Source of the DNA: Deltaproteobacteria bacterium
GTDB taxonomy: Bacteria; Myxococcota_A; Polyangia; Fen-1088
DNA: 64,000 nt
Direction of reading: 5' to 3'
Assembly: GCA_033763315.1 (NCBI GenBank)
Contig: JANRKS010000032.1
Coordinates: 128,001 to 192,000 of the forward strand
Shown: positions 2,569 through 43,695 of the stretch, piece after piece
Layout: each line of letters begins with the position of its first letter
Position numbering within the stretch: position 1 is the first letter of the stretch
The notes under the pieces: generated by a model
Database searches by the model: none
Seen by the model: only the letters and a program-made list of their open reading frames with translations
Told to the model about the DNA's origin: nothing
Position numbers and translations under genes: made by a program

Positions 2569-2958
2569 ATGCCATCTTTTCCGTCAGTCAAGATGTCCGT
2601 ACCGCCGCTTCAAGCGGGTCGCCGCCGTCGCTTCTCAGACGATGAAAAGCGCGCGCTTTTAACCGAAGCGTTCTTGAACCATGAGACGCTTTCCGAACTC
2701 GGGCGTCGCCACGGCATCGCCGTGGGGCTACTTTTCCGTTGGCAACGACGCCTCGGCGTTACGCGTCTTTCGGTGTGCGGTGACATGCCGAAGGCCCAGC
2801 GTGTCGCCACGCCGGCCGAACAGCGTCTCGCAGACCTCGAGCGCCAACTGAACGCGCTGTTGCAAGACAACTCGGCGTTGCAAGAGCGCTTGGCGCGGGT
2901 CGAGTCGCTCAACCGCGTTTTGCCTGCATCGGCCACGAGCAGCCAGCATTCGCACTAG
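2569..2958 (+). CDS. Transposase-type HTH (IS3 OrfA / IS66 TnpA-like) plus coiled-coil protein, with no catalytic partner
   Basis: RRRRFSDDEK…SELGRRHGIAVGLLFRWQR matches the HTH_Tnp_1 pattern. C-terminal heptad LADLERQLNALLQDNSALQERL. AAGGA SD at about 2556-2560. Confidence 0.65.
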   Translation: MPSFPSVKMSVPPLQAGRRRRFSDDEKRALLTEAFLNHETLSELGRRHGIAVGLLFRWQRRLGVTRLSVCGDMPKAQRVATPAEQRLADLERQLNALLQDNSALQERLARVESLNRVLPASATSSQHSH

Positions 2959-2993
2959 TCACATCCCTCTTTGTCTTCGCGTGGAGTTTAGCG

Positions 2994-4775
2994 ATGTCGA
3001 AACAGCTGACGAATTCAGGATTGATCGTTGTCAGGAAACTGTGGCCCGCCGCGGTCTTGATGCTTGCAGCGTGCTCTGGAACTGCGGGAAGCGAGGACGC
3101 TGCGGGTGGCGAAGGAGGTGAGGGCGGCGCCGGTTCAAGTGGCGGCAGCACCAGTTTGAAGCTGGATCGCGTGCCCGACGAGCCGCTCATTTGCAACGAC
3201 CCCGAATCGCTCAACGTCACCCGCTCGGCCTTCTCACGCCTAACGAACGCGCAGTACATCCGCACCTTGCGCGATCTCGCGGCGCCGATCGCGTTAGATG
3301 ATGATCTTGGCCTTCAGTTGCCGACGGAGACGGCGGACAAAAAGGGCTATCTCAACAATTTCGAACAGCAGGGGGCTCAGGCGCAGTTCGTTGAACAATA
3401 CGAACTCACCGCACGCAACGTTGCGAAGAAGATCACCTCGAGCCTCGGCAAGATCGGCGTCTCGGCGTGTGAGAACCCAAGCGGTGCCGCCGCTCAGACA
3501 GCCTGCGCGACGGCCTTCATCGAGTCCTTCGGTCTGCGCGCCTACCGTCGCCCGTTGTCGAACGACGAGAAGCAGAGCCTTAAGGCGCTCTACGACGCAT
3601 CCGCCACCACGTGGGGCTTCAGCGACGCGATGACGGTGCTCGCTTCCGCGATGTTGAGCGCGCCGCAGGTGCTCTACCTTGTGGAGCTTGGCAAAGACGA
3701 TGGCAAAGGCCTCAAGCTCACCGGATACGAAGTCGGCGCTCGCTTGTCGTATCTGTTCTGGGGCACCACGCCCGACGCTGACCTGTTGAATGCGGCCAAG
3801 GCAGGCAAACTCGACACGGCGAACGGCATCGTCGCCGAAGCCACCCGGCTCTTGGAAGATCCCAAAGCGCGCCGAGGGTTGTCTGAATTCAGCGCGCAGT
3901 GGCTTCGTTTTGCGAAACTATCGGTGGACTCCGCCGCTGTGAAGAAAGATAAGACGCGCTTTGCCGACTACACAGACGCCATGGGCAAAGCTTCGTTCGC
4001 AGGCCTGCAGGCTTTTGTCGAGGACGCCCTGTTCGGCGACGGCGGCGGTGTGCAAAAGCTGCTTGGCAGCAACAAGGCGTGGGTCAACGCTGCCAGTGCG
4101 CCGCTTTACGGGCTCAAGGCTTCGGGCGATGAGCTCAAGCCCGTCGATCTCGACCCAAAACAGCGCAAGGGCTTCCTAACCCAGGCCGCCGTCATGGCCG
4201 GCTTTTCACACGAGACGGTGCACGCGCCCGTTCAGCGTGGTGTGTTCGTGCTCGATCATTTGCTTTGCTCGCCTCCACCCACCCCCCCGCCCGGCGTGCC
4301 CGGGGCGCCACCTGCGGCCGCAACCGATGTAGAGACGACGCGGCAGAAATTCGTACGCGAACACGAGAGCAAACCTGATTGCAAAGCCTGCCACAAGCGC
4401 CTTGATGACGTGGGCTTCACGTTCGAGAACTATGATGCCCTCGGGCGTTGGCAAACCACAGAGACGGTGGGCTCACAAAAGAAGGTGTTGCCGATCGATG
4501 CCAGCGGCGCTTTGACCGACACATACGACGCAGACGGTGAATTCGCGAACGCCATCGAACTGATTGAGAAGATCTCGAAGAGCGAGCAAGTCGCCCAATG
4601 CTTTGTAAACAACTTCTTTCACTACGCTTTGGCTCGCGATCAGGTGCAAGAAGATGGCTGCACTTTGGCGGCGGCTGCCGATGAAGTGGTCAAGAACGAC
4701 GGCAGCTTCAAATCGCTTTTATTGGCCACCGTAAAGAGCAACCAGTTTCGGTACCGCGCTCCCATTGAGCAGTAA
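2994..4775 (+). CDS. DUF1587/1595/1592/1588/1585 (PSD) domain lipoprotein with CxxCH, copy 1
   Basis: Lipobox LAAC, Gly-rich linker, RLTNAQYIRTLRDL, RAYRRPL, RLSYLFWGTTPD, PVQRGVFV..LLC..PPP, CKACH, FENYDALGRW. Confidence 0.9.
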   Translation: MSKQLTNSGLIVVRKLWPAAVLMLAACSGTAGSEDAAGGEGGEGGAGSSGGSTSLKLDRVPDEPLICNDPESLNVTRSAFSRLTNAQYIRTLRDLAAPIALDDDLGLQLPTETADKKGYLNNFEQQGAQAQFVEQYELTARNVAKKITSSLGKIGVSACENPSGAAAQTACATAFIESFGLRAYRRPLSNDEKQSLKALYDASATTWGFSDAMTVLASAMLSAPQVLYLVELGKDDGKGLKLTGYEVGARLSYLFWGTTPDADLLNAAKAGKLDTANGIVAEATRLLEDPKARRGLSEFSAQWLRFAKLSVDSAAVKKDKTRFADYTDAMGKASFAGLQAFVEDALFGDGGGVQKLLGSNKAWVNAASAPLYGLKASGDELKPVDLDPKQRKGFLTQAAVMAGFSHETVHAPVQRGVFVLDHLLCSPPPTPPPGVPGAPPAAATDVETTRQKFVREHESKPDCKACHKRLDDVGFTFENYDALGRWQTTETVGSQKKVLPIDASGALTDTYDADGEFANAIELIEKISKSEQVAQCFVNNFFHYALARDQVQEDGCTLAAAADEVVKNDGSFKSLLLATVKSNQFRYRAPIEQ

Positions 4776-39560: not shown

Positions 39561-39636
39561 GCAGGCTCCATGGCGGCGTCAATGTGCAAACGCAGTGCCC
39601 GCTTGCGCCCGGCGTTTTGGTTTGTAACGCTTGCGC

Positions 39637-40467
39637 ATGCCTCGGTCACCGCTGACGCTTGTGCAATTGCGAGAACGATACGTGACGCGCGCCCGCCCGA
39701 TGCCGGCCGACGTCGAGGCGGCCCTGCGCGCCGATCCGCGTCCGGGGGCACAAGCGCTGTTGACGGCGGTGCAGAAGCGACGTTTCGAGAACCGCGCCGA
39801 GGGGCAGCGTTTGCGAACGATGCTGCGCTTCGAAACGGAGCTTTGGTCACAAGGGCTGCAGTTGATTGCGGGCGTTGATGAAGCGGGTATGAGTCCGCTG
39901 GCGGGTCCTGTGGCAGCCGGCGCTGTGATCTTCTCGCCGGACACGCGCATCCCGGGTGTGGACGATTGCAAGCGCCTCGACGCCCGCGAGCGCGAACGTT
40001 TGGCGCCGCTGATTCGCGCCCAAGCGGTGGCGTGGTCTGTGGCTTTTGTGGAGCCCGATGAGATCGATTCACTCAACATCTATTGGGCTGGGGTGGCGGC
40101 GATGAAGCGCGCGGTGGCAGGCCTGGGCGTGGTTCCCGAACACGTGTTGCTTGACGGCCGCCGCATCAAAGACTTTCCCCACCCACAACGCGCGATCATC
40201 AAAGGTGATCAAAAGAGCCTCTCGATCGCCGCGGCCTCTATCTTGGCAAAAACCGAACGCGATGAACGCATGCGGCAGTTCGATGCCGTTCATCCGGGGT
40301 ATGGCTTTGCCGTGCACAAGGGATACCCGGTGAAGGCGCACCTCGCAGCGCTCGCGAAACTAGGGCCGTGCCCCATTCACAGGCGATCCTTTGCGCCCGT
40401 ACGGCAGGCGGCTGGGTTGCCACCCGACAATGCTACGGCTTCGCAAACGGCCGCACAATCACCATGA
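39637..40467 (+). CDS. rnhB: Ribonuclease HII with N-terminal extension
   Basis: AGVDEAG..PLAGPV, DDCK, LLDG, IKGD..SLSIAAASILAK..RD, HKGYP, HRRSF. Confidence 0.96.
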   Translation: MPRSPLTLVQLRERYVTRARPMPADVEAALRADPRPGAQALLTAVQKRRFENRAEGQRLRTMLRFETELWSQGLQLIAGVDEAGMSPLAGPVAAGAVIFSPDTRIPGVDDCKRLDARERERLAPLIRAQAVAWSVAFVEPDEIDSLNIYWAGVAAMKRAVAGLGVVPEHVLLDGRRIKDFPHPQRAIIKGDQKSLSIAAASILAKTERDERMRQFDAVHPGYGFAVHKGYPVKAHLAALAKLGPCPIHRRSFAPVRQAAGLPPDNATASQTAAQSP

Positions 40468-40867
40468 TCACGATGATCACCATCAGCAACGTGGGCACTT
40501 CGTTCATCACGCGGAAGAACTTGTGCGACTTGAAGTTAGGCTCGGTGATCAAGCGCTTGCGCCATCCGCCCGACATGCCGTGAAGGCCCGCCAAAGCAAA
40601 AACGCATGTCAGTTTTACATGCATCCACGGTTGCTTAAGCCACAGCGGCACCATCACCAACATCGCGATGCCGGTGGCCAACGTGGCGATCATCGCGGGC
40701 GTGGCGATGGCCTTTTGCAGGCGTCGCTCCATCACGGCCAAACGGTCACGCACCACCTGCTCGGTTTCCATCGCGTGGTACACGAACAAGCGCAAAAGAT
40801 AAAGGGTGCCCGCCATCCACGAGATGAGCGAAATCAGATGAACGGCCTTGATCCATTGGTAAAGCAC
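40433..40867 (-). CDS. hemJ: Protoporphyrinogen IX oxidase HemJ
   Basis: WIKAVHLISLISWMAG..YLLRLFVYH, MERRL, WMHVKL, FRVMNEVPT. Confidence 0.93.
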   Translation of the reverse strand: MLYQWIKAVHLISLISWMAGTLYLLRLFVYHAMETEQVVRDRLAVMERRLQKAIATPAMIATLATGIAMLVMVPLWLKQPWMHVKLTCVFALAGLHGMSGGWRKRLITEPNFKSHKFFRVMNEVPTLLMVIIVIMVIVRPFAKP

Positions 40868-41043
40868 GGGCCGAGGGTAGCAGCGGCGCCTGCGATTCTC
40901 CAGCGGGCGTAACCCCCACCGGGCATGAAGGGCGAAAAATGTTTCGTTAGCACCCCATGGTGTAAAACCGATAAATACGATATGTGGACGCATGTGGGCG
41001 CGGGCGGCATCTAAACCCGGCCTCAACCTTTTGGGAGATTCAT

Positions 41044-42378
41044 ATGTCGGTATCTTCGGAATTTAAGAAGTTCGTCCTGCGTGGCAACGTGGTCGATCTG
41101 GCTGTAGGCGTGGTGATCGGCGGTGCGTTCGGCAAAATTGTGGCAGCGTTCGTGGACGATCTCGTCATGCCGATGGTCGCTCCGCTGCTGCCAGGCGGGA
41201 ACTGGCGCGAAGCCACGATCACGCCGCTGAATTTCAAGATCGGCCACTTGTTCGGCACGGTGCTCGACTTCCTGATCGTGGCGGCCGTGATCTTCTTTGT
41301 GTTGGTCAAGTTCGTGGGCTTTATCTCGCGCAGCAAAGAAGCGGAGCCGGCGCCTCCCGCCACCAAGACGTGCGGCGAATGCTTGGAGACGGTGCCGCTG
41401 GCGGCCAAGCGTTGCAAGTTCTGCACGAGCGCCCTGGCGGTGCTGGCGCTTGTGTTGTTTGGCGCGCCTGCGTTCGCGCAGACCACGCCCAAGTTTGAGT
41501 ATGTGAAGCCTGTGATTGAAGCGAAGCCAGCGGCTGAGTGGACGGCGCAGGTGAAGGGCGGTCTGATTTCCGCGGCGGGTAACTCGCAAGCCACCAACTT
41601 CAACTTGGGTGCCGCAGCGTCACGCAAAGCCGGCGACAACAAGTTTGCGCTGGATTTTGCGGGCGCGTACGGTGAGACGAAGAACCGTGCCTTTGTACCC
41701 GCCACAGCGGGTAGCCCCACAACGGTCGATAGCGACGCGGACATCACCCGAACCAAGGTGGTTTCGACAAACAACCTGCTGACAAAAGCCCGTTATGACC
41801 GGTTCTTGACGGAAAACAATGCTGCATACGTGGCGGCTGCTCTTGGCCGCGACAAGATTGCAGGCAAGAAGGTGTTTGGTGGTGGACAGGGTGGCTACAG
41901 TCGCCAGCTATTGAGCAACGAGCAACATTTGGTCGTTGGCGAGTTTGGCTACGACTTCTCGTACGAGTCTTACTACGGCGATGCCGATTCCGTTTCGATT
42001 CATTCAGCGCGAGTATTCGTCGGAGAGACGTGGAAGTTGTCCGACGTCACTGGCATCTACGGAAATGTCGAGGCGCTGTTCAACGTCAACAAAGAAGGAA
42101 GCGCGTTGAATGCGAGCAAGAAGGCCCCCACTGGCGAAGCTGCCACGGGCGTAGGAGCGTTCAAAGACACGCGCGTGAACGCCAAAGCGGGCCTAACGAC
42201 CACGCTGTGGAAGAACCTCAGCTTTGGTTTCGGCTTCACCCTCAAGTACGACCAAAACCCTGCAGCTTTGTCATTGCCGAAGCCCGCCACACCCGACCCT
42301 ATGGCCTTGCCATACACAGCCTTTGCCGAGAAGGTCGACGTCATCACCGAAGCGTCGCTGATCGTCACGCTGCTCTAA
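41044..42378 (+). CDS. mscL: MscL fused to a zinc ribbon, an internal signal peptide and a DUF481-like outer-membrane beta-barrel
   Basis: EFKKFVLRGNVVDLAVGVVIGGAFGKIV; CGEC…CKFC; ALAVLALVLFGAPAFA-Q; then W…GGL.SAAGNS, RYDRFLT, GGQGGYSR, E.GYDFSYE, LSFGFGFTLKYDQNP, TEASLIVTLL. Confidence 0.88.
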   Translation: MSVSSEFKKFVLRGNVVDLAVGVVIGGAFGKIVAAFVDDLVMPMVAPLLPGGNWREATITPLNFKIGHLFGTVLDFLIVAAVIFFVLVKFVGFISRSKEAEPAPPATKTCGECLETVPLAAKRCKFCTSALAVLALVLFGAPAFAQTTPKFEYVKPVIEAKPAAEWTAQVKGGLISAAGNSQATNFNLGAAASRKAGDNKFALDFAGAYGETKNRAFVPATAGSPTTVDSDADITRTKVVSTNNLLTKARYDRFLTENNAAYVAAALGRDKIAGKKVFGGGQGGYSRQLLSNEQHLVVGEFGYDFSYESYYGDADSVSIHSARVFVGETWKLSDVTGIYGNVEALFNVNKEGSALNASKKAPTGEAATGVGAFKDTRVNAKAGLTTTLWKNLSFGFGFTLKYDQNPAALSLPKPATPDPMALPYTAFAEKVDVITEASLIVTLL

Positions 42379-42989
42379 GCGCCGAAACGCCGTCGCAGGT
42401 CGTCCACCAGGCGGATGACCTGCGAACGTGTGCTTTCCAGGCTGCCGCCGTTATCGACCACGTGCGAAGCCACTTTGATTTTCTCTGCCAGCGGCAACTG
42501 CGCCCCCAAGCGTGCCCGCACTTCCACCTCGGATAGAGGCCCCCGCGCCACCGCGCGTTGAACCTGAACGTCCTCGGGAGCCGTGACCACGATCAAAGCG
42601 TCGAAGTCTTTGTGTCGCCCTGTCTCCACCAGCAGCGCCGCCTCATAAACGGCCACCTTGTGACCTTCCGCTTCCAGCGCGCGCACGCGATCCATGGCAC
42701 GGTTTTGAATCTTGGGGTGCGTGATGGCCTGCAGTTTCGCGCGCGCTTCAGGGTCAGCAAACACCAACGCACCCAACGTCAGGCGATCCAATGTGCCATT
42801 GGGCGCCACGGCTTGCGGCCACAGCGCCGCGATCTCGGCCAACGCTGGTTCCCCCGGTGCCACGATGTCGCGCGCGATCTGATCCGCGTCCAGCACCGCG
42901 ATGCCGCAGTCCGCGATCAGCCGTGCCACCGTTGATTTTCCGGAGCCAATGCCACCTGTGAGGCCCACAAGGGCCAGGTTTCCCACCAT
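42375..42989 (-). CDS. coaE: Dephospho-CoA kinase
   Basis: VGLTGGIGSGKSTV, DADQIAR, LDR..LG..VF, ITHP.I, EAALLVE, QLP..EK. Confidence 0.97.
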   Translation of the reverse strand: MVGNLALVGLTGGIGSGKSTVARLIADCGIAVLDADQIARDIVAPGEPALAEIAALWPQAVAPNGTLDRLTLGALVFADPEARAKLQAITHPKIQNRAMDRVRALEAEGHKVAVYEAALLVETGRHKDFDALIVVTAPEDVQVQRAVARGPLSEVEVRARLGAQLPLAEKIKVASHVVDNGGSLESTRSQVIRLVDDLRRRFGA

Positions 42990-43038
42990 GGGCCGCGATC
43001 CTATGTCATTGTCCCTGCAAAACGTAAGCACTTGTTCA

Positions 43039-43695
43039 ATGGTTGTTGCTGCTGATGTTCCCCAAGTTCTCTCGGCCACGTTCGTTGCCGAAGCCCGCGT
43101 GCCCGCCGATTTGCGTTCGCTGCCCGCCGTGGCCGGGTTTCAGATTGCCATCGCCGGCCGCTCGAACGTTGGCAAGTCCACGCTGCTGAACCACTTGGCG
43201 TCGCGCCGCGCTTTGGCGCGCACCTCGAAGACGCCTGGCCGCACGCGCGGCTTGATCTTCTACGATTTTTCGCTTCGCCTCAGCGCCGACGGGCTGCCCT
43301 TCGCCTTGCGCGTGGTTGATTTACCCGGTTACGGCTACGCCAAGGTCAACAAAACTGAACGGGAAAGCTGGCGCTCACTTGTTGAGACTTACGTCAACGA
43401 CACGCAAACCCTCAAGCTGTGTTTGGTCTTGGTGGACGCGCGCCGTGGCCCTGAAGAAGAAGAGGGGCAACTGATCGAATGGCTCGATAGCTTAGGCATT
43501 CCCTCGCGGCTTGTGGCGACGAAGATCGATAAACTGACCGCAGGCGAACGTGGTCTTTTGAACAAGACGATCCCAGGCGCCATTGGTGCTTCCGGTTTGA
43601 ACGGTGAGGGCGTGGATCGGGTGTGGAAGGCCGTCATGGCCTCGAAAGTGGCCCCTAAAGTGCGCCCGCCCAAGGTGCGCGACGATTCTGTTTGA
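43039..43695 (+). CDS. engB: Ribosome biogenesis GTPase EngB/YihA/YsxC
   Basis: AGRSNVGKSTLLN, SKTPGRT, VDLPGYGYA, TKIDK. Start at 43003 or 43039. Confidence 0.95.
   Translation: MVVAADVPQVLSATFVAEARVPADLRSLPAVAGFQIAIAGRSNVGKSTLLNHLASRRALARTSKTPGRTRGLIFYDFSLRLSADGLPFALRVVDLPGYGYAKVNKTERESWRSLVETYVNDTQTLKLCLVLVDARRGPEEEEGQLIEWLDSLGIPSRLVATKIDKLTAGERGLLNKTIPGAIGASGLNGEGVDRVWKAVMASKVAPKVRPPKVRDDSV

Follow-up and report, generated by a model that had tools for sequence, protein, structure and literature searches.

The large-conductance mechanosensitive channel MscL is a homopentamer gated by membrane tension; its C-terminus is cytoplasmic, and the helix found there forms a pentameric bundle that is not essential. 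A different arrangement, in which an inner-membrane protein and an exported protein begin as one chain, is reportedly found in FbcH of Bradyrhizobium japonicum, where cytochromes b and c1 are said, from the work of Thony-Meyer and co-workers in 1989-1991, to arise from one precursor that is split at an internal signal peptide. DUF481 is a family of putative porins, entered as TCDB 1.B.75 (PMC4827864). Its E. coli member YdiY is described as an abundant outer-membrane protein with a function that "remains unknown" (bioRxiv 10.1101/2024.12.09.627556), and DUF481 mutants of Pseudoalteromonas haloplanktis are described as growing poorly in fusidic acid (bioRxiv 10.1101/2024.12.11.627208). Here we analyzed a 64,000-nt stretch of an uncultured deltaproteobacterial genome (the window; contig JANRKS010000032.1 of assembly GCA_033763315.1, positions 128,001 to 192,000) in which a single open reading frame (ORF) encodes an MscL with a zinc-ribbon tail, a predicted Sec-type signal peptide and a DUF481/YdiY-family barrel. 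Comparison with related genomes indicates that this is a real gene fusion maintained by selection in uncultured Polyangia (Myxococcota) of soil and water. Each half belongs to a known family; we found no paper on an MscL-signal-barrel architecture, none mentioning MscL together with DUF481 or MscL together with a zinc ribbon, and nothing usable in the literature on internal signal peptides in bacterial inner-membrane proteins.

The fused ORF (P0001) is one uninterrupted frame of 444 aa on the + strand, from ATG 41044 to TAA 42376-42378, and its orthologues share the start Met (MS[VIL]..EFKKF). A preliminary description of this locus, made from the sequence alone, had proposed the fusion of MscL to an outer-membrane barrel, and profile searches bear out both halves. 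The Pfam MscL family (PF01741) matches residues 5-117 with 102.4 bits (cut-off 27.4; 2.8e-29), and DUF481 (PF04338) matches in two stretches, the best at residues 173-353, with 78.6 bits (cut-off 21.1; 9.1e-22). The NCBIfam mscL equivalog TIGR00220 is also passed (93.1 bits vs a cut-off of 71), while scores for the other NCBIfam MscL equivalogs lie under their much higher cut-offs, and the NCBIfam matches stop at residues 101-114. In a sequence search of the PDB, solved MscL chains align to residues 1-110, and the transmembrane helix 1 (TM1) gate motif of MscL, GNVVDLAVGVVIG, is retained.

An AlphaFold2 (AF2) model built with an 82-row alignment (mean predicted local distance difference test score, pLDDT, 83.2; predicted TM score, pTM, 0.61) gives a beta-barrel at residues 165-442 with 13-14 DSSP strand segments, mostly at pLDDT >90, so that the barrel suggested earlier by the alternating strands is recovered by structure prediction as well. 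TCDB gives 12 predicted strands for the DUF481 family (PMC4827864). Foldseek against the PDB returned outer-membrane barrels only (FadL, FapF, OmpG, NanC at TMt 0.69), and the PDB sequence search with the fused protein found MscL relatives only and no solved DUF481 relative. With generic barrel matches only and no solved relative, the fold gives no function. In the MscL half, the C-terminal cytoplasmic helix of canonical MscL is not predicted; its place is taken by the Pro/Ala linker and a beta-hairpin at residues 107-118. Prediction of a complex between residues 1-145 and 146-444, using slices of alignment A1 (the alignment with 59 fused rows that is also used below), scored 0.00, gave no verdict and was not used as evidence.

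The fused architecture is found well beyond this assembly. A 5.8-billion-protein collection was searched as 90%-identity clusters, and the best 120 of 372 matches were examined. MscL, CxxC-x10-CxxC, a hydrophobic stretch and the barrel occur together in 66 of these clusters, which come from several data sources and whose proteins measure 420-492 aa (one partial, 358 aa), with identity down to 43%; the other 54 comprise 52 standalone DUF481 orthologues and two deletion forms. Those matches that carry named records are metagenome-assembled genomes labelled Polyangia or Myxococcales. A complete, stop-free fused protein (52-67% identity) is also carried by seven of the 41 related genomes (G000, G001, G002, G005, G019, G020 and G032), which span six genera. 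Among the matches listed from a profile search across 301 class members, G205 is fused as well, with 159 weaker matches beyond. In the public annotation these proteins are labelled just "large conductance mechanosensitive channel", which hides their second half.

These data bear directly on whether the fusion could be an assembly artefact or the private read-through of a stop codon. The preliminary description had allowed for a stop or frameshift at the junction in close relatives, and there too the frame is kept open. Public sequencing runs speak neither for nor against this assembly or its expression: four DNA runs, each with no more than 6% of the sampled words, and no RNA run were found, and the run pieces at 80% likeness are short contig pieces from relatives, none of those listed bridging the junction (the nearest stops at 41444). 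One relative, L102, shows an apparent frameshift, although inside the MscL part rather than at the junction. Against this, the identical in-frame junction recurs in 66 clusters of independent assemblies and in seven genomes of six genera, which effectively refutes an artefact: with an open frame conserved in so many independent assemblies, we regard the idea as having almost no chance of being correct. A pseudogene was likewise considered, together with read-through, and both were ruled out by the open frame across relatives and clusters. The locus in L102 itself (2716-4330) holds the fused gene in two frames, with profile positions 1-40 in one and positions 41-127 plus the barrel in the other; this split, which G317:C7:371277-371635 probably shows too, is either a frameshift or a sequencing indel.

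Between the two halves, the junction reads ...KTCGECLETVPLAAKRCKFC-TSALAVLALVLFGAPAFA↓QTTPKFEY... (the arrow marks the predicted cleavage site), and CGEC...CKFC (residues 110-127) is followed by TSALAVLALVLFGAPAFA↓Q. An 18-residue uncharged hydrophobic stretch ends in AFA↓Q, and the segment has the anatomy of a signal peptide, with an n-region of net charge +3, the h-region ALAVLALVLFG and the c-region APAFA↓Q. It spans residues 122-145 and is thus internal, behind two transmembrane helices, rather than N-terminal as is usual for Sec signals. AF2 models a helix at residues 125-139, and pLDDT falls below 50 only at residues 141-146. A further comparison is with the standalone DUF481 orthologues of the same class, which at 300-330 aa are ordinary exported proteins. 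All 52 open with a classical n/h/c signal peptide that is collinear with the internal hydrophobic segment, and from residue 146 onward the fused protein lines up with their mature N-terminus. Of the 52 standalone proteins, 51 keep the cleavage motif [AGSTV]x[AGS]↓Q, as do 64 of the 66 fused ones, where it lies a median of 18 residues past the second CxxC; the two fused exceptions read ASA↓AD and ATA↓D. Among the fused rows of A1, Ala occupies position -3 in 55/59 and -1 in 57/59, Gln occupies +1 in 56/59 and Pro occupies -4 in 42/59, and these residues stay conserved though overall identity drops to 43%. The preference for Gln at +1 is reminiscent of signal peptidase I substrates in Bacteroidetes, for which an N-terminal Gln/pyroglutamate rule has been described (PMC5837995). 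Homology to the standalone signals, together with the n/h/c anatomy, thus upholds the earlier proposal of an internal signal peptide, and indicates that the segment is a true signal peptide by descent; its predicted site also falls where it had been placed, after the Ala145 codon.

The zinc-ribbon-like knuckle pair ahead of this signal is itself well conserved: the four Cys of CxxC-x10-CxxC, E115, A121 and R123 are invariant in 59/59 fused rows of A1; the Pfam profile for UPF0547 (PF10571) scores residues 108-127 at 21.8 bits, below its cut-off of 29. The second knuckle (K122 R123 C K125 F C) doubles as the positive n-region, as had been suggested. Its pattern K/R-R-C-K/R-x-C gives a net charge of +3 in the eight residues before the hydrophobic stretch in 66/66 fused proteins, so that the knuckle appears to have taken over the role of the n-region. 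These data lend no support to the earlier suggestion that metal or redox state might influence export, and the ribbon also occurs on MscL genes that have no export signal. The zinc-ribbon tail is a lineage-specific MscL variant. Besides those in the gene pairs described below, 12 further standalone genes for MscL with a zinc-ribbon tail (MscL-ZnR) stop 3-20 residues past the second CxxC (e.g., ...CTSVLPA* and ...CTAVVPA*), in agreement with the earlier statement that such proteins normally end just after this point.

We consider it likely that signal peptidase I cleaves after Ala145, which would free the barrel for the outer membrane, while MscL-ZnR, still joined to the signal helix, would stay in the inner membrane. 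Three lines of evidence favor this: the motif, with its Gln at +1, is conserved no less strictly than in proteins whose export is certain; purifying selection acts on both halves, with a mean pairwise identity of 65.5% in the MscL core and 53.6% in the barrel (59 fused proteins, A1); and the 19 residues that separate the site from the first strand in most members are, by our own estimate, too short a link for an uncut chain to cross the Gram-negative periplasm, so that insertion into the outer membrane seems to need cleavage. Several points weigh against cleavage. The signal-peptide call rests on homology and motif rules, and polytopic bacterial proteins in which an internal signal is naturally processed are rare. 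Some internal initiation is possible in this organism, as members of its genus have an in-frame GTG before the n-region. Finally, the 18-residue uncharged stretch is long enough to serve as an uncleaved membrane anchor, and four relatives carry an insert after the site that would suit a tether spanning the periplasm.

The last two points are the case for an uncleaved protein of three helices, in which the hydrophobic segment, sufficient for a thin membrane span, persists as a third transmembrane helix and the barrel stays tethered to MscL, either where the two membranes are in contact or as a domain that lies in the periplasm or associates with the inner membrane. The insert, found in P0050, P0052, P0053 and P0071, is an Ala/Glu/Lys-rich repeat of 60-70 residues (AKAEAAKAEA...) between A-x-A↓Q and the first strand; it presumably forms a long periplasmic helix and recalls periplasm-spanning spacers such as TolA domain II. 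However, these variants keep A-x-A↓Q as well, and conservation of this motif and of Pro at -4 as strict as in the standalone exported orthologues would not be expected of a mere anchor. The short distance to the first strand in most members counts against tethering too. Moreover, the motif that follows the signal peptide, Q..PKFE[FY].K...VEWKAQ.KGG, is common to fused and standalone proteins, and standalone barrels in genomes without any MscL match retain the same N-terminal extension, which therefore is not a dedicated tether. An uncleaved anchor is, on balance, unlikely.

The barrel might also be made mainly from an internal start within the zinc-ribbon codons, with the long ORF being incidental. 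The preliminary description had offered GTG 41392 as such a start, and TTG 41383 is also in frame. The GTG is present in the two same-genus genomes and is preceded by GGAG. However, the spacing between GGAG and GTG is just 3 nt, and no + strand promoter-like site was seen inside the gene. In a codon alignment of seven orthologous genes covering the region from the first CxxC to the n-region, ATG, GTG or TTG occurs before the n-region in three (L001-L003) and in none of the other four (L004-L007), so that the start does not hold as a shared feature. Internal initiation would, in addition, leave unexplained why 66 clusters lack the stop codon that the unfused pairs have. We therefore think it improbable that the barrel is produced mainly in this way, and return to cleavage of the full-length protein as the preferred explanation.

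In another reading, that of a decaying or incidental fusion, the MscL half would be a non-functional leader that is degraded and bound for deletion. MscL is patchy in the window's family (f1), where PF01741 matches in 19 of 61 genomes and in 7 of the 25 of high quality, and many bacteria of this family may live without MscL. Two cluster proteins, P0082 and P0113, look like fused genes with the MscL transmembrane part deleted, and the tree described below places standalone barrels within groups of fused ones, as would be expected if MscL were being lost. Nevertheless, conservation is higher in the MscL core than in the barrel, the core scores above the TIGR00220 equivalog cut-off and keeps the canonical TM1 motif, and the fused ORF is the sole MscL match in all six fused genomes of the family. 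Its conservation above that of the barrel and its standing as the only MscL make both halves appear to be in use, and we judge a decaying fusion to be very improbable. In the window's own genome (90.85% complete), no MscL or DUF481 match other than the fused ORF was found. Across the family the barrel is near-universal, with a match to profile A1 in 43 of 46 genomes.

Unfused relatives suggest how the fusion may have arisen. In G273 and G219, mscL-ZnR and duf481 are adjoining separate genes in the same order as in the fusion, with a gap of ~50 nt; mscL-ZnR ends in ...CRACTAVVPA* and ...CRACTAVQPA*, respectively, and duf481 has its own start and signal. The fused gene probably formed when an mscL-ZnR gene lost its stop codon and ran into the signal peptide of the adjoining duf481 gene. 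The barrel of the fused G205 is sister to those of G273 and G219 on a tree of 85 barrel domains (unrooted, one domain, with 18 duplicate, broken or partial loci left out). On this tree the nine fused genes do not form one clade and require six state changes. Forcing them together was rejected by the approximately unbiased (AU) test, both for all nine (p = 5.8e-77) and for the eight of the main clade (p = 3.6e-4), with constraint groups defined by architecture, but after the first tree had been seen. As the fused genes are not one clade, the barrel phylogeny indicates that fusion or fission happened several times. In P0082 and P0113, the second zinc knuckle, signal and barrel follow immediately on the MscL N-terminus (M..EF.EFINKG...), and both transmembrane helices are gone; these proteins may show a route from fused to standalone barrel genes, or they may be assembly errors.

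Other arrangements also link the two genes. In G022/L012 and L082, duf481 is followed immediately by a canonical mscL, and three loci of more distant Myxococcota (L024, 1121-2287; L098, 3942-5415; L105, 4014-5384) have one OmpA-like gene between duf481 and mscL. For most standalone barrels, no MscL lies within 3 kb. The OmpA-like protein, as judged by eye from its translation, combines a signal peptide and a barrel-like N-terminal part with Asp-rich thrombospondin-type-3-like repeats and an end resembling the OmpA C-terminus.

Taken as a sequence of events, the proposed processing would begin with synthesis of the fused protein as one chain, whose two MscL helices insert with the C-terminus in the cytoplasm. 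The K/R-rich second knuckle, acting as n-region, would orient the next hydrophobic stretch in-to-out, and the C-terminal part of ~300 residues would be threaded through SecYEG. Signal peptidase I would then meet A-x-A on the periplasmic face and cut after Ala145, so that mature Gln146-...-Leu444 enters the periplasm as a free protein and is assembled into a barrel in the outer membrane, while MscL-ZnR stays behind in the inner membrane and either retains the signal helix or has it trimmed later. In this way the emergency valve of the inner membrane and the barrel of the outer membrane would necessarily be synthesized in equimolar amounts. One bacterial polypeptide would then supply an alpha-helical channel to the inner membrane and a beta-barrel protein to the outer membrane, and the gene would offer a natural system for examining how Sec, YidC, signal peptidase and BAM treat an internal signal behind a polytopic protein.

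Why these two proteins should be made together is a more speculative matter. One possible but tentative explanation is that MscL and the DUF481/YdiY barrel form one envelope-wide osmotic release route, in which MscL dumps solutes into the periplasm and the co-made barrel gives these solutes, water or lipid a passage across the outer membrane, or shields that membrane from the shock in some other way. If so, the fusions and fissions, the two kinds of adjacent pairs and the duf481-ompA-like-mscL clusters would together amount to "Rosetta stone" evidence, and the release route would be a first function for the widespread and abundant YdiY family. The link to MscL would in that case provide an osmotic or envelope-stress hypothesis for YdiY, which is found in many Gram-negative bacteria including E. 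coli. In a bolder version, the uncut chain of some members, for example those with the long Ala/Glu/Lys spacer, could physically bridge both membranes.

The features of the locus are collected in Table 1. The surroundings consist of housekeeping genes, with no sign of a mobile element. For the divergent UPF0093/HemJ-like ORF, the Pfam match starts only at residue 55; its true start probably lies ~150 nt further in, which would leave ~170 bp between the divergent genes to hold both promoters. A scan of positions 40400-43200 found no + strand promoter-like site within or ahead of the fused gene. The terminator scan of the same interval placed two + strand hits inside the ORF and none between the fused gene and the convergent dephospho-CoA kinase gene; the two hits do not exceed chance expectation (six sites found vs 3.4 +/- 1.8 expected).

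Table 1. Features of the fused gene and its surroundings, in window coordinates.
Feature	Residues	Position (nt)	Strand	Basis or remark
RNase HII gene		39631-40467	+	upstream housekeeping neighbor
UPF0093/HemJ-like gene		40433-41026	-	neighbor; listed start 17 nt from ATG of fused gene
Shine-Dalgarno-like GGGAG		41033..41037	+	6 nt 5′ of ATG 41044; read from sequence
Whole fused ORF P0001, 444 aa + TAA	1-444	41044..42378	+	full-length open orthologues in relatives
MscL channel core	1-100	41044..41343	+	Pfam PF01741, TIGR00220, solved MscL chains, AF2
MscL N-terminal helix	3-13			AF2
MscL TM1	16-48	41089-41187	+	AF2
MscL TM2	66-95	41239-41328	+	AF2; periplasmic loop between TM1 and TM2
Pro/Ala-rich cytoplasmic linker EPAPPATKT	101-109	41344..41370	+	AF2: no regular structure at 96-106
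Zn-ribbon-like knuckle pair CGEC-x10-CKFC	110-127	41371..41424	+	invariant Cys, AF2 hairpin
In-frame TTG 41383 and GTG 41392		41383..41394	+	candidate internal starts, unconserved; GGAG ends 3 nt before GTG
Internal Sec-type signal, h- and c-region (TSALAVLALVLFG-APAFA)	128-145	41425..41478	+	homology, motif
Predicted signal peptidase I site	Ala145↓Gln146	between 41478 and 41479	+	Ala145 = 41476-41478, Gln146 = 41479-41481
N-terminal extension of predicted mature barrel (QTTPKFEYVKPVIEAKPAAEW)	146-164	41479..41535	+	pLDDT 50-58
DUF481/YdiY-family outer-membrane beta-barrel	165-444	41536..42375	+	Pfam PF04338, AF2, Foldseek
Dephospho-CoA kinase gene		42375-43079	-	convergent; overlaps stop of fused gene by 4 nt (42375-42378)
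EngB-like GTPase gene		42901-43695	+	downstream housekeeping neighbor

Compared with known systems, the fused protein shares with canonical MscL the two transmembrane helices, the TM1 motif GNVVDLAVGVVIG and scores above curated cut-offs. It differs in that a Pro-rich linker and CxxC-x10-CxxC stand where canonical MscL has its C-terminal cytoplasmic helix, and in that 317 more residues follow. The standalone MscL-ZnR genes of Myxococcota belong to the same MscL subfamily (62-63% identity over residues 1-135) and have the same knuckle pair. The G273 and G219 pairs have the gene order of the fusion, but there MscL-ZnR stops 3-20 residues past the second CxxC, and the barrel is translated from a start of its own, with a separate n-region. 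With the DUF481/YdiY family the fused protein has profile family and barrel in common, whereas its signal is internal, behind a complete inner-membrane channel. The nearest parallel in organization is FbcH, which reportedly likewise holds a polytopic inner-membrane protein, an internal Sec-type signal and an exported second protein in one ORF. For FbcH, processing has reportedly been shown, with signal peptidase as the presumed enzyme, while that of the fused protein is predicted from sequence; and while both FbcH products are said to join one inner-membrane complex, the two products of the fused gene would go to different membranes.

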